A stretch of 64,000 bases of DNA from assembly GCA_951406725.2 (NCBI GenBank), contig OX597837.1, positions 40,424,001 to 40,488,000 on the forward strand, given 5' to 3'. Numbering within the stretch: position 1 is the first letter of the stretch; each line of letters starts with the position of its first letter. This DNA comes from Octopus vulgaris (lineage: Eukaryota). The notes beneath the pieces are model-generated. The model was given only the letters and a program-made list of their open reading frames with translations. It was not told the DNA's origin and made no database searches. The translations under genes and the position numbers were made by a program. Below are positions 22,022 to 44,690 of this stretch, piece after piece.

Positions 22022-22206
22022 AAGGAAAATTCACAAAAAAAACAAATGTCGAAGACAGGTGGTGTAGACAACAAACATATGTATTAGTATGATGTTCGGG
22101 AAGTGAAAAAGTCTTTAACGTTTCGAGCCTACGCTCTTTCACAGAAAGGAACACAGAAAGAAACATGGACAGAAAATAAAGAATGTGTAGTGGCTAGCGA
22201 TCTGGA
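22022..22206 (-). mobile_element. Short Penelope-like element with CUGU-core minimal hammerhead motif (22113-22148)
   Basis: Minus strand CTTT-CTGTGAA-A-GAGC gtag GCTC-GAAA-CG-TT-AAAG; (TA)n on both sides. Confidence 0.7.
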
Positions 22207-25200
22207 TATATATATATATATATATATATATATATATATATAGATAGATAGATAGATAGATAGATAGATAGATAGATAGATAGATAGATAGATAGATAGA
22301 TAGATAAATAGATAGAAAGATAGATAGGTAGGTAGGTAGGTAGGTAGGTAGGTAGGTAGATATATAGATATATGATAGATAGATAGATAGATAGATAGAT
22401 AGATAGATAGATAGATCGATAGATACATACATACATAGACAGACAGACAGACAAGCAAATAATAGCATGATAGATAGGTAAATGGATATATATATACATA
22501 TTCATTTAAAAACACCCACTCATAAATACAAGCGTACATATACAAGAGCACAAATATGTGTGTGTGTATGTGTGTGTGTGTGTGTGTGTGTGTGTGTGTG
22601 TGTGTGTGTGTGTGTGTGTGTGTGTGTGTGTGTGTGTGCGTGCGTTTGTGTACATGGGAGAACTCACGGTTTTATATCTTCGTGTTCGAAAATGACAGTC
22701 TGTATGAATGGATGTATATGTGTTGGTTTTCATGTTTTTACAGCAGTTTCTTCAAAGTGCGCAGGTGTTTGTATGTGTATATGCAGGAGAGAGATAGAGA
22801 GAGAAAGATATACAGACAGGCAGAGACAGTGATAAAGAAAGAGAGAGTGTATACTGTATGTATGTGTGTATGTAAGTATGTGTACGTAGTTGTGTGGTTT
22901 ATGCTTTTTTATTAAATTTTCTCTACGCCATCTTTCATATATATATCGCATGAATCTGTTATCTGCCGTCATGAAAGACCGCTGTCGTATAAGACACATT
23001 AATGTACAAAGAACCAATCCTATTCTGGAGAATATTTGAAAAGAAGGTGAAAATAATAAATATTGATGTAATCCAAGAAGCGTATATAAAAGAAATCGCA
23101 AAGAACTTATTTCTAAAGTAAGCATCTTAGTTTAATAAAATCTTCATTTTGTATTTCATAAAATTTAATATAAAACTATATTTCGGTATTATTTGCAAAC
23201 AATTGGAGAAGATTGTGATATTGTCTGCATATTTCAAAGTATATATACATATATATATATATATATATATATAAATATATATATACGTACGTACAAATAT
23301 ACATACATGTATGTACGCGTGCTTCGAGGTGTATACACTAATACATGCAACGTTTATTTAAGCATGTAGACACACACATACATACATACATACATACATA
23401 CATACATACATACATACATACACACACACACACACACACACACACACACACATATATATATATATATATATATATATATATATATATATATATATATATA
23501 TATATATGTATGTATAGATAGATATATGTAAATATATGCACGAGGGGGAGGAGGAGAGCGACGGATAGATCTCAATTTATGCATGGAAGACATCCACATA
23601 TATGCACTTATCTATATACAGTAATGTATATATGTGTGCGTGTATGTACACACACATATATATATATATATATATACGGTGTGTATAAATATATATATAT
23701 ATATGTATGTATTTCTGTATATATATATATTCATATATATGTGTATATATACATATACATATACATATATACACATAGGTATGGACGTATGTTTAAGCAA
23801 GCAGAAACATACATGCACATAAATTTTTAAATGTGTGTATATATAGTTATATATATATATATAAATATATATGCATATATATATATATATATGGGTGTAT
23901 AAATATGTATATATGTGTATATATATGTGTATATATCTGTGTGTATATGTGTGTGTGTATGTATGTATATAATATACGTATACATATATGCGTATAAATA
24001 ATTCATCTTTTAATACATGTATACGTAGATGTATTTCTATGCATATATAAGTTTGTGCCTGTATATATGTATACACATACGTTTATGGAAGTGTGTGTGT
24101 GTGTGTGTGTGTGTGTGTGTGTGTGTGTGTGTGTGTGTGTGTGTGTGTACATATGCATATATATATATATATAAAGCGAGAGAGATAAGGTTTCTCATTT
24201 CAAGTTGCTACTTCACACGTCTCAAACGGTTTTTCAGACTGAAAAAGAAAGTTATGAAACCGCCCATTAGTTGCCAGTTTATTCTTAATGCGATTTATAA
24301 ACACAAGTATTTTGTCTAATTGTGTACACATACAGATATATATATATATATATATATATATATAAAATACACACATACACTCATACATTTATGCACTTAT
24401 CTGTCTATATAGTCATATCATATATACATACACATATGCATGAATGCATATATATATGAGTGTCTGTCTGTATATACATCCATACATGGAAATATATATA
24501 TATATATATGTGCATACACACACACATTGCATGACTGTCTGTGTGTATATACATCCATAAATCGATGTATATATATATATATATATATATATATATATAT
24601 GTATACACACACGCGCGCACACTCTATTCTATATATATACACACTTATGCATGTATGCATATATGTATAATTGTTTGTGTGTATAGACATCCATACATCT
24701 ATGTATATATATTTATATATATATATATACATATATATTCGTATATATATATATATATATATATATATATATATATATATATATATATGTATACACACAC
24801 CACACAAACACACTCGCGCGCACACACACACACACACACACACACACACACACATATATATATATATTTATCTATGAATGTATTTATTATCTGGAATGTA
24901 GTAATCAACAGAATTAAATTTTGGTGCAAGTTCAGTGCAATCTCATCTCACTGTATAATTTTTTTTTCCTTACAGAAAACAGTAAGGGAAAGCATCACTA
25001 TTTTACTCTTTTACTTGTTGCAGTCATCTGACTGCGGCCATACTGGAGCACCGCATTTTAGTGCAGCATATCGACCCCAGGTGTTATTCTTTGTAAGCCT
25101 AGTATTCTCCCCGCTTTCAATGTATACAGAGCTCGAAGGGTATTGGATAACAAACTGAAGGAGGCGTCTCCCTGGGTTTAAAATAACAGTATTGTCTGTT

Positions 25201-25397
25201 CTTATAAAACATTCACGCTGAGGTGTCAATAAATATTACCTATAAGTATATATATAAGATTTTCTTAACGAGCTACTTTTACACATACATACACACATGC
25301 ATATATACATACATACATACATATATGTATATATATATATATATATATATATATATATATATATATATATATATATATATATATATATATATATATT

Positions 25398-25660
25398 GGA
25401 GCAAAGGTTGTTTGTCAACATAACATGGTAGTCCTGGTTTAAGACGAATGTTGCTGTAATTCGGCCCCAGGAGACATCGTCTCTAGCTGGCTCTATGACT
25501 CGACGTGTGTCCTTATGTTTTCGAACAAGGGAATCTAGCAACATCATTAGAGCAGCATTCATCCTAAACCAAGTCTACCATGTTACGTTGGCAAACAGTC
25601 TTTGCCCTAAGGTGCTGTTACTGAATATCTCTCGTAGTGAGATTTACAAATAGTAATTTT
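25398..25660. mobile_element. MITE-like element with ~55-bp imperfect inverted arms
   Basis: gcaaaggttgtttgtcaacataacatggtag... pairs with ...ctaccatgttacgttggcaaacagtctttgc; homologous to 32395-32685. Confidence 0.75.
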
Positions 25661-26979
25661 CTAATATCTCTCTCTCTCTCTCTCTCTCTCTCTCTCTCTC
25701 TCTCCCGCTTTATATATATATATATATATATATATATATATATATATATACCATTATCGTTCTATAATATGTAATTTTCTAGATGGTATCATTTAATGTT
25801 TCATTATTGAATTGATAAAAGGTGGTTATCTTCTAATTTATATATATACATTATATTTTGTGAAATTTGATTTAGTATTTCTAAATTGAATTTTTTCCTG
25901 TAAGTTTGGAATAATATTCCCTCATATCATAATTAAATATATATATATATATATATATATATATATATATATATATATATATATATATATATATATATAT
26001 ATATATATATATATATATATATATATTCAGTAAAAACAATTAAGATTCAAGTGAGTTCCATGAATACAATCTAACTTTGCTTTTTATAGGACTCTCTTCG
26101 ATACTTCATGAGTGTAGCCTCACCCCCTAGGACGTTTGGAAAACTCATATGTGTTTTGGCTGATGAATACGGGACACTTGTATTTGCTGCAATATTTGCA
26201 GCTATTAGTTAAGCTGTTCTTCGTATGAAACAATTGTACTGAACAACTAATCCATTCTTGTTGCTTTTTTCTTGTATATATATATACATATAAATCTATA
26301 TATATACATACATACATACATACATACATACATACATACATACATACATACATACATACATACATACATACATACATGGGTGCTTGGGTGTGTATAATCC
26401 TCGTTAGCCTAAGTTTCTATAACCCTAGGTTCTATTTTGCAATTCCTCAAATATTTCACTACAGGGAAACACCATCTTTTGAGTCAGAAACTCTGACGAA
26501 CCTTCTTCATAGCCACTGGCTTCCATGATCTTCACGTGATGATCATCTCCATATTCCTAATAGGTTTAATTCGAATCGTAATAAAACCTTTCACTGCTTT
26601 GCTTCATTTTGTATTCAAAGCAACAACCTGATATTAACACTTTCTACATGCTGCAAGATTATCCTGATCTCCTTCCCTTTACTGCTGAGGATGATAATAG
26701 CTTTATTATTAGAAGGTTTATGAGTGTATGTATGCGCACATATATACAGATATGTGCGTGTGCATAGATAGATAGAGAGATAGATATATGTGTGTGTTAA
26801 TACAATTATATAAATGTATATGTATATGAGACATAGCAGCAGATGGTGTTTACTTCATATACATATATATATATATATATATATATATATATATTTATGC
26901 TCCAGCATCCCATGGTGGTGCTCCAGCATGACCACAGCCGCATGGCTGAAAAGAGTAAAAGAGTATAAATATTTTTTCA

Positions 26980-43660: not shown

Positions 43661-43899
43661 CCATCAACAGAGTACTGTATATTACTGGAAGATTTATAGA
43701 ATTTAAGTTGGTTTCCAGTTTGGGAGGAAAATGTTTTGCAACACTGCGTTTTATATAAATTCCATCATTCTGCCTTGTATTAAATATTGCTGTCATTTTT
43801 GACATGGTGCCTCCCCCAAGTGTTTTGGCATACTTTATAGAATTCAGAAATTTATTGTTAACATCTTGGGTTCTTTTCTTTCTACAAAGGTGGACTCTT

Positions 43900-44150
43900 C
43901 AATTTATCGCCGAAATTTATCTTCATTCCATCTTTTTCTATAATTATTTTCATGATTATTGTTCTGACGAACTTTCCGGTCTAGTACTCTCTGTCAAAAC
44001 ATTGATACTTGCCTATCGCTTCTCTCTAAAAACAGTGCATCATTTATCTATTGGGTTTCCTGTCAGCCATAAGTCCTTTTATCCAAATAACTTCTTTCTT
44101 CGAACTCTTGCTCTCTGGAGATCATTACTATCGTCTTTTCGAATTCAGAA
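43900..44150 (+). pseudogene. Decayed CR1/Jockey-like LINE ORF2 C-terminus
   Basis: FYNYFHDYCSDELSGLV...NNFFLRTLALWRSL resembles the FF.RT..LWN.LP terminal motif. Confidence 0.6.
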
Positions 44151-44534
44151 TTGACTTGTTAATGTGGTGGGTCCTCTTCCTTCTACTGGAATTTTTGGCT
44201 CATTGTTAAAATTAATTTTCATTGAATCTTTTCTGTAAATATTTTCTGTGGTCAATGCGCTGATATAATTTCTAATCTACTAATCTCTTTCCATAAATAT
44301 ATATATATATATAAATTTCAATAGAAAAATACCTAGAATGAGAAGCGACTGACACGTTTAAAGATATATATATATATATATATATATATATATATATATA
44401 TATATATATATATATATATACATACATACATATATGTAGATAGATAGATAGATAGATAATAGATAGATAGATAGATAGATAGATAGATAGATAGATAGAT
44501 AGATAGATAGATAGATAGATAGATACATACATAC

Positions 44535-44690
44535 CCACTACACATTGGTTCTTTGTGTGTTACTTTCTGTGGAAGAGCGTAGGCTCGAAACGTTAAATAC
44601 GTTTTCACTCCCCGAGCGTTATACTAATACATCTATTTGTTGTCTACACCGCCTGTCTTCGTCTTTCGTTTTTTTTGTGAATGTTTCCCC
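44535..44690 (+). mobile_element. Short Penelope-like element with CUGUGGA-core motif (44563-44598)
   Basis: CTTT-CTGTGGA-A-GAGC gtag GCTC-GAAA-CG-TT-AAAT. Confidence 0.7.

Follow-up and report, generated by a model that had tools for sequence, protein, structure and literature searches.

Four minimal hammerhead motifs with U at core position 6

The window analysed here is a stretch of 64,000 nucleotides from Octopus vulgaris (GCA_951406725.2, contig OX597837.1, positions 40,424,001 to 40,488,000 of the forward strand), and all coordinates below refer to it. It consists of microsatellite-rich eukaryotic DNA with 22–44% GC per 2 kb and is filled with short interspersed repeats. Four dispersed copies of one such repeat carry a minimal hammerhead motif in which A at core position 6 is replaced by U (U6), as a preliminary description of this DNA had pointed out. 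C3 of these motifs lies at 22144(-), 36072(-), 39933(+) and 44567(+), and we refer to the 22-, 36-, 39- and 44-kb copies. Together with two copies of a sister lineage and one decayed relative, they make up the seven relatives compared in the window:

22022–22205 (-): element copy 1 (22 kb), about 184 bp, between (TA)n tracts
22113–22148 (-): copy 1 motif, with U6 and G8A; C3 is at 22144, N17 (22117) is U, and both stems are intact
35934–36140 (-): element copy 2 (36 kb), a diverged sub-lineage or an old copy, its 3′ flank 65–70% identical to the others and its 5′ flank no better than shuffled sequence
36041–36076 (-): hammerhead motif of copy 2, with U6, N17 = C, three pairs in stem II and three in stem I
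39871–40048 (+): element copy 3 (39 kb), shortened by a small deletion immediately behind stem I
39929–39964 (+): hammerhead motif of copy 3, intact except for U6, N17 = A (the family majority)
44534–44691 (+): element copy 4 (44 kb), with a shorter 5′ end, the reference for the public contigs
44563–44598 (+): copy 4 motif, in which U6 is at 44570 and N17 (44594) is U; the outer pair of stem I has been lost, G at 44598 being the family majority
44609–44620 (+): conserved downstream motif, TTCCYGAGCGTY-like, with 0–2 mismatches in 7/7 relatives, able to pair with the stem II 3′ strand
3930–4136 (-): copy of the sister lineage (motif at 4033–4067), with CTCACGA as core and GTTT/AAAC as stem I
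6262–6482 (+): copy of the sister lineage (motif at 6341–6375), with CCGACGA as core and GTTT/AAAC as stem I
2400–2535 (-): third, decayed relative, core CCGATGA (motif at 2436–2487), followed by (TTA)n, absent from the preliminary description

The unit comprises 160–205 bp, with a pyrimidine-rich 5′ part, the motif in the middle, the conserved block about 15–25 nt further on and a U-rich 3′ part, and it ends 88–111 nt past N17. All four U6 copies are solo, not tandem. TA-type or TTA repeats are located at the 3′ end of 7/7 relatives, those of the 36-kb and 39-kb copies being short or imperfect; the base rate is 12% of the window within 10 nt of (TA)4+. Such microsatellite insertion is a targeting feature of the Neptune/Naiad type.

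The occurrence of U6 in four dispersed copies at these sites was borne out in 4/4 cases, as compared with a mean of 0.00 matches in 100 dinucleotide shuffles. A 27-nt pattern with up to three mismatches matched exactly the four U6 copies in the window and nothing in 100 shuffles, and a generic hammerhead descriptor gave no match combining U6 with ACGT in 15 local shuffles. The extra A after position 9, directly before stem II, and the palindrome ACGT in place of stem III were likewise present in 4/4 copies, as had been claimed. All four copies also contain GAAA with a palindromic 15.2–16.2 and no stable stem III, as well as a UH cleavage site; N17 is U, C, A and U in the 22-, 36-, 39- and 44-kb copies, respectively. 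In the type I topology with stems I and II, 89% of 56 cells were paired, versus 21–50% when the register was slid. The G10.1–C11.1 pair is retained in 7/7 relatives.

The cores read CTGTGAA (22 kb), CTGTAGA (36 kb and 39 kb) and CTGTGGA (44 kb). The canonical CUGANGA core is absent from all of them, since U6 is found in 4/4 copies and G8 is lost as well in the 22-kb copy. The CUGU(N)GA core proposed in the preliminary description holds with respect to U6, but the 22-kb copy does not lack N7. It is most simply explained by U6 plus G8A, because the C3-to-G12 spacing is the same in all four copies, and a deletion of N7 was rejected on that ground. The stems proved less uniform than described: stem II is GAGC/GCTC in 3/4 copies, but GGGG/GCTC at 36 kb, and stem I is a complete CTTT/AAAG in 2/4, but ATTT/AAAG at 36 kb and CTTT/AAAT at 44 kb. 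Both stems are complete in two of the four copies, and only the 39-kb motif (1/4) is otherwise intact apart from U6. The 36-kb motif, formerly placed at 36041–36075, is present, but its full 36-mer starts at 36076. The stem I of the sister lineage, GTTT/AAAC, was confirmed at 4033–4067(-) and 6341–6375(+), but the sister cores are not canonical either. Thus, canonical CUGA occurs in 0/7 relatives (U6 in four, C4 in two and C5 in one). C at core position 4 is common to two relatives, at 6345(+) and about 2475(-), and it is a known low-activity natural hammerhead variant. The source element of the sister lineage may itself be non-canonical.

Descent from a Penelope-type minimal hammerhead is supported, as all sequence features of the published minimal hammerhead ribozyme (min-HHR) match except A6. 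The min-HHRs of Cervera and De la Pena (2014) possess an extra nucleotide between 9 and 10.1, G10.1–C11.1, a palindromic 15.2–16.2 and mostly solo copies (PMC4209133). The U6 motifs share with them a short stem I, the extra nucleotide after A9, G10.1–C11.1, a 4-bp stem II, GAAA, a CG palindrome for stem III, the UH site, a U-rich 5′ flank and the mostly solo arrangement. The closest min-HHR row is Neptune of Acropora digitifera, with a near-identical stem II and the same GAAACGU (PMC4209133). In contrast to U6 here, A6 stands in 56/56 rows of Fig. S3 of that study, though its descriptor required A6. Unlike the published Penelope min-HHRs, the U6 family is known here without a link to an open reading frame (ORF). 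Because the core, one of the defining tests, fails, we file the U6 motif as a derived min-HHR variant and not as a shown ribozyme.

Exact-pattern scans of metagenome contigs, viral contigs and prokaryote genomes gave no match, and a covariance model recovered only its seven training copies, the next match having an E value of 0.45. No natural U6 hammerhead was found among the literature matches listed. A survey by Lunse, Weinberg and Breaker from 2017, which reportedly deals with small Penelope hammerhead variants, lay outside the search, and the claim of novelty is limited because this survey or its supplement may already hold a U6 variant. The motif is of a known kind, and U6 is apparently a core change without an earlier report in the literature searched. 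The repeat annotation of Octopus vulgaris lists Penelope families, and the word "ribozyme" is absent from its main text (PMC13282606).

Family abundance, variation and predicted folding

Public contigs were aligned to the 44-kb copy (reference 44540–44694) at a likeness threshold of 80% in four runs, namely X1 (organism A, guessed to be DNA), X4 (organism A, guessed to be RNA), X5 (organism B) and X6 (organism C). Matching contigs numbered 7,877, 2,431, 398 and 172, respectively, under three organism labels. In X1, the peak summed depth divided by the median depth of 8 long pieces was about 60,000, a ratio that is no copy number. It permits only a rough estimate of tens of thousands of copies for the family, which agrees with the four copies per 64 kb seen here. 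The 3′ loose ends of the contigs enter (TA)n in all four runs, and loose ends also reveal subfamilies with other 3′ flanks. Over 44564–44660, the summed depth of the hammerhead half was 2.5–3.8 times that of the 3′ flank in X4–X6, with a step near the cut site, and 1.05 times in X1. This step was dropped as evidence of cleavage, given that contig depth cannot rank parts and one of the runs X4–X6 was guessed to be DNA.

The percentages below are depth-weighted contig shares biased toward shared variants, and the variant table covers 44579–44651 among the rows listed; core positions 3–9, U6 included, lie outside it, and the N7 G>A difference of 2/4 window copies is missing from its counts as well. 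At position 17, A accounts for 87% (X1), 65% (X4), 67% (X5) and 74% (X6), and U is a minority. The preliminary description had stated that position 17 is never G. This is true of the window copies, but four copies have no power, the probability of seeing no G17 among them being 0.95 at a rate of 1.4%. In X1, G17 reaches 1.37% by depth (43 contigs). It is not depleted, because this share is level with C>T at non-CpG flank sites (1.0–1.9%); A>G reaches 1% at no more than one of 18 other A sites. G17 at a neutral frequency was among the outcomes named beforehand as speaking against selection. The share of G17 is just 0.03% in X4 and X5, which we did not use as evidence, since small contig sets drop rare variants. 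Furthermore, the core CpGs, G12 included, decay like the flank CpGs, because the core rates of 1.8–9.4% in X1 (G12>A 3.0%, C11.1>T 1.8%, C15.2>T 9.4%, G16.2>A 4.4%) compare with 2.1%, 2.7% and 7.5% in the flanks, the last two at flank CpG G's.

Covariation among the seven window sequences amounts to one pair, the terminal one of stem I; it reflects a single event separating two lineages, and its score was reached by 108/500 shuffles. The compensatory change in stem I claimed earlier therefore stands as one pair, C–G to G–C, but the covariation is not significant. With G17 undepleted, the CpGs decaying like the flanks and the covariation insignificant, the proposed selection of the structure for cleavage is unsupported. 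Judging from the alignments, U6 itself is inherited and is not a private decay of single copies, because it is found in 4/4 copies, one of which has flanks only 46–70% identical to the others. The motif is also better conserved than its flanks, as detailed below, which suggests that U6 persisted through at least two source lineages with the remaining motif held.

Folding was computed on isolated 36-mers. The replacement is predicted to let U4-G5-U6 pair with A15.1-C15.2-G16.2, with a probability (P) of U6:A15.1 of 0.65–0.85 in 3/4 motifs, while P of this helix is 0 with A6. The fully open form is predicted to be 2–6 times rarer with U6 than with A6. Relative to shuffles, the motifs show no better folding (z -0.7 to +1.4). 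A self-duplex of the core strand was also considered as the effect of U6 and rejected, the values being -8.4 kcal/mol with U6 and -7.0 kcal/mol with A6, and their order being the opposite in two copies. The conserved downstream block (2418–2429, 4004–4015, 6390–6401, 22091–22102, 36016–36027, 39967–39978 and 44609–44620) is predicted to pair with the stem II 3′ strand with P of 0.73–0.88 in the three relatives that have A6; the value is 0.33 for the 36-kb copy and 0.00–0.06 for the other U6 copies.

According to a full pairwise mutagenesis, single and double mutants of the CUGA-turn region are all low in activity except for the C3/G8 swap (PMC9901934). Minimal hammerheads are dimer-dependent and already low in activity with a perfect core (PMC4209133). 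The hammerhead of phage Bcep176 is a natural example of a pyrimidine at the normally invariant position 6, as in the U6 family; this A6C ribozyme is slow in Mg2+ and cleaves at about 0.3 per min in Mn2+ (Perreault 2011, PMC3088659; Naghdi 2020, PMC7151607). It is, however, a single phage ribozyme with measured activity, low in Mg2+ and good in Mn2+, whereas the U6 family has U, is of the dimer-type minimal form and is a very abundant animal repeat known from its sequence alone. The U6 change more likely switched cutting off than made a new working ribozyme.

Proposed origin of the family and rival explanations

The anatomy, abundance and decay pattern described above are the observed basis of the following suggestion: the motif is probably a minimal hammerhead that has been crippled and that a successful, very abundant Penelope-like family carries in its 3′ stubs. 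The four sites would be solo 3′ stubs, comprising the end of a pseudo-long terminal repeat (pseudo-LTR) and about 90–110 nt beyond the hammerhead cut site. Their source would be a family of Penelope-like elements, or its short non-autonomous derivative, with TA-type microsatellites as targets. We infer the Penelope origin (no ORF was seen), the loss of activity and the insertion mechanism. The ancestral motif would have been a dimer-type minimal hammerhead in which A6 changed to U once, in the source element. U6 most likely crippled cleavage by breaking the CUGA turn, and the pairing of U4-G5-U6 with A15.1-C15.2-G16.2 would bury the dimerisation palindrome. The family could nevertheless have spread, because the protein of the element would reverse-transcribe uncut RNA, starting downstream of the motif. 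Inserted copies would then decay like their own flanks, and the residual conservation between source lineages would be a leftover or a non-catalytic constraint.

Such a course has parallels in known elements. In the anole Poseidon, hammerhead mutants insert normally, uncut RNA is the dominant template and the ribozyme cleaves only with protein (Frangieh 2024, PMC11167929). Like the stubs, Poseidon has a hammerhead near the 3′ end of the element, insertions ending about 90 nt past the cut and AT-rich targets; unlike them, it contains an ORF, and its ribozyme is canonical and assisted by protein (PMC11167929). Its reverse transcriptase (RT) starts 111–118 nt into the ORF and the cut is at +26, i.e., the start lies 85–92 nt past the cut (PMC11167929), compared with 88–111 nt from N17 to the 3′ end here, which is suggestive only, since Poseidon belongs to another Penelope clade. 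Naiads have no canonical hammerheads; they attain high copy numbers and show a preference for (TA)n, and a similar bias has been proposed for Neptune (Craig 2021, PMC8557442). In view of the Naiad and Poseidon data, the abundance of the family therefore cannot count as evidence for cleavage by the U6 motifs. Animal non-LTR retrozymes are likewise short, non-coding, hammerhead-bearing and related to Penelope pseudo-LTRs, but their units are repeated in tandem, their hammerheads are of the canonical type I and they have circular RNAs, whereas the stubs are solo, minimal and core-mutated (PMC7229834; bioRxiv 10.64898/2026.07.22.740005). Identity with retrozymes is ruled out because the copies are not tandem; one go-back joint was found among the 7,877 X1 contigs.

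Several points weigh against a crippled, freely decaying motif. The 36-nt motif is more conserved than the flanks in 9/9 pairs tested, although the region was chosen post hoc, the pairs are non-independent and the flanks are of low complexity. When the 36-kb copy is compared with the remaining U6 copies, the identity is 81–86% in the motif versus 63–64% in the flanks (Fisher p 0.007–0.04), and within the main group it is 92–94% versus 78–84% (p 0.04–0.08). In addition, contig variants at frequencies of at least 19% affect loop II, position 17, the outermost pair of stem I and the 3′ flank, but neither the stem II 3′ strand nor GAAACGU. At the sequence level, this excess and the placement of variants point to constraint after U6 arose. 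The U6:A15.1 pairing is missing from the 36-kb copy (P 0.09), and the folding of 36-mers ignores the sequence context. A Penelope ORF was not found, as Pfam gave no match to a Penelope RT or GIY-YIG ORF in 120 of the 207 non-repetitive segments of at least 55 aa in the window. Neutral decay of inserts would be expected even with an active ribozyme and is therefore no proof that the source was inactive. Moreover, Penelope hammerheads are weak and the anole one needs protein; therefore, a protein could rescue U6. A modest case for constraint at the level of the source element remains, while the data do not establish a working ribozyme under selection.

A reading along the lines of the preliminary description takes U6 for a tolerated slow core variant, with a source hammerhead that cleaves as a dimer, helped by protein or Mn2+, and with selection keeping the stems, GAAA and palindrome. 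We regard this as possible but unlikely. The excess conservation of the motif between U6 lineages, the retention of G10.1–C11.1, N17 being mostly A with a minority of U (both permitted), the rate of A6C in Mn2+ (PMC7151607) and the protein assistance of the anole hammerhead (PMC11167929) agree with it, but G17 is undepleted, the covariation is insignificant and U6 is predicted to close the fold. Also, minimal hammerheads are weak even with a perfect core (PMC4209133), and CUGA-turn mutants are rescued by no second change but the C3/G8 swap (PMC9901934). It is quite unlikely that tens of thousands of copies under three organism labels represent a working U6 lineage, in which the U6:A15.1 helix would shut the monomer until a Penelope protein or a partner RNA opened it for dimeric cleavage. 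Alternatively, U6 could be a selected off-switch: with the cut site in the middle of the template, a disabled CUGA turn would be favoured and the hairpin kept as a signal for the RT/endonuclease of a partner. CUGA is indeed broken in 7/7 window relatives, the cut site lies inside the 160–205 bp unit, U6 adds a predicted inhibitory helix, and the downstream block is predicted to pair strongly with the stem II 3′ strand in the three A6 relatives. However, the seven copies amount to only two or three events, C4 and C5 may have arisen by decay of the single copies concerned, and in the main U6 copies the downstream block is predicted to pair weakly; compensatory changes are lacking in this pairing. 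No extra off-switch is needed, because canonical Penelope 3′ ends already carry uncut hammerheads, and we consider this scenario very unlikely.

There is a slim chance that the motif serves purely as a substrate, cut in trans, within a mixed dimer, by a partner that has canonical A6 and shares its stem I and palindrome. Dimer topology is established to permit trans cutting (PMC4209133), and the palindrome, H17 and AAAG are retained in the family majority. Yet no A6 partner with CTTT/AAAG occurs among the seven window relatives, stem II is conserved too, though needless in a pure substrate, and G17 is undepleted. Finally, the repeat could be no hammerhead at all but a short interspersed nuclear element (SINE)-like repeat whose conserved block looks like a polymerase III B box. 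Here, GGCTCGAAAC has one mismatch to what we take to be the B-box consensus. The folding of the motifs, no better than that of shuffles, fits this idea, as does Rfam, with no hammerhead family among the 150 matches listed of 593, those being of the microsatellite-driven microRNA type. Against it, the core, extra A, stem II, GAAA, palindrome, UH site and stem I stand in register and fit the published consensus, a compensatory stem I pair links two lineages, and no A box was seen upstream; this explanation is extremely improbable. Derivation from tRNA was rejected as well, ARAGORN finding 0 tRNA genes in the window, a search by which decayed heads would be missed.

Other repeats in the window and significance of the family

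Further hammerhead-like motifs are also present in the window. At 47879–48209(+), two copies lie 164 bp apart and share 95% identity over 167 bp; both contain a canonical CTGATGA core (C3 at 48007 and 48171) and an imperfect stem II, and the first has a 6-bp stem I. This pair is a better candidate than the U6 family for an active dimeric hammerhead or a retrozyme-like unit. Another minimal hammerhead at 40711–40750(+) contains the core ATGAAGA (C3A), 5-bp stems I and II and the palindrome AATATT. Canonical CTGANGA...GAAA cores at 32051(+), 35603(+), 46211(+) and 30969(-) failed the stem descriptor and are possibly decayed hammerheads of other families.

The remaining repeats are of various types. 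A 323-aa open stretch at 19310–20281(+) gave the only Pfam match above the cut-off among the 120 segments scanned (zf-RVT at 19310–20278, E 2.8e-8) and is the 3′ end of a long interspersed nuclear element (LINE) of the L1/Tx1 type. A 99-aa stretch at 14326–14625(+) has a sub-threshold Pfam match only and presumably resembles a restriction-like endonuclease as encoded by R4/Dong-type LINEs. A SINE-like family, very common and sometimes arrayed, contains an internal repeat of about 184 bp and was found at 5835–6227, 10693–11775, 15547–15962, 27400–27798, 29188–29486, 42682–43376 and 63703–63962, and a second family at 9169–9643, 49264–50706 and 62212–62597. An inverted-repeat element of about 260–300 bp with a weak helix-turn-helix match, similar to miniature inverted-repeat transposable elements, occurs at 32384–32688 and 25396–25661.

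The U6 family would bear on the role of Penelope hammerheads in transposition: if it did multiply with a broken CUGA turn, it would mirror in vivo, in a natural setting, the in vitro result that cleavage can be dispensed with. Should the motif be dead and unconstrained, the family would be an ordinary retroelement fossil. If U6 cleaves, the known hammerhead core widens, and descriptor searches requiring CUGANGA miss whole high-copy families. If the U6 lineage works through a helix opened by a protein or a partner, it would have a built-in switch at a position thought to be invariant. A comparison of which positions stay conserved could reveal what the motif is kept for.

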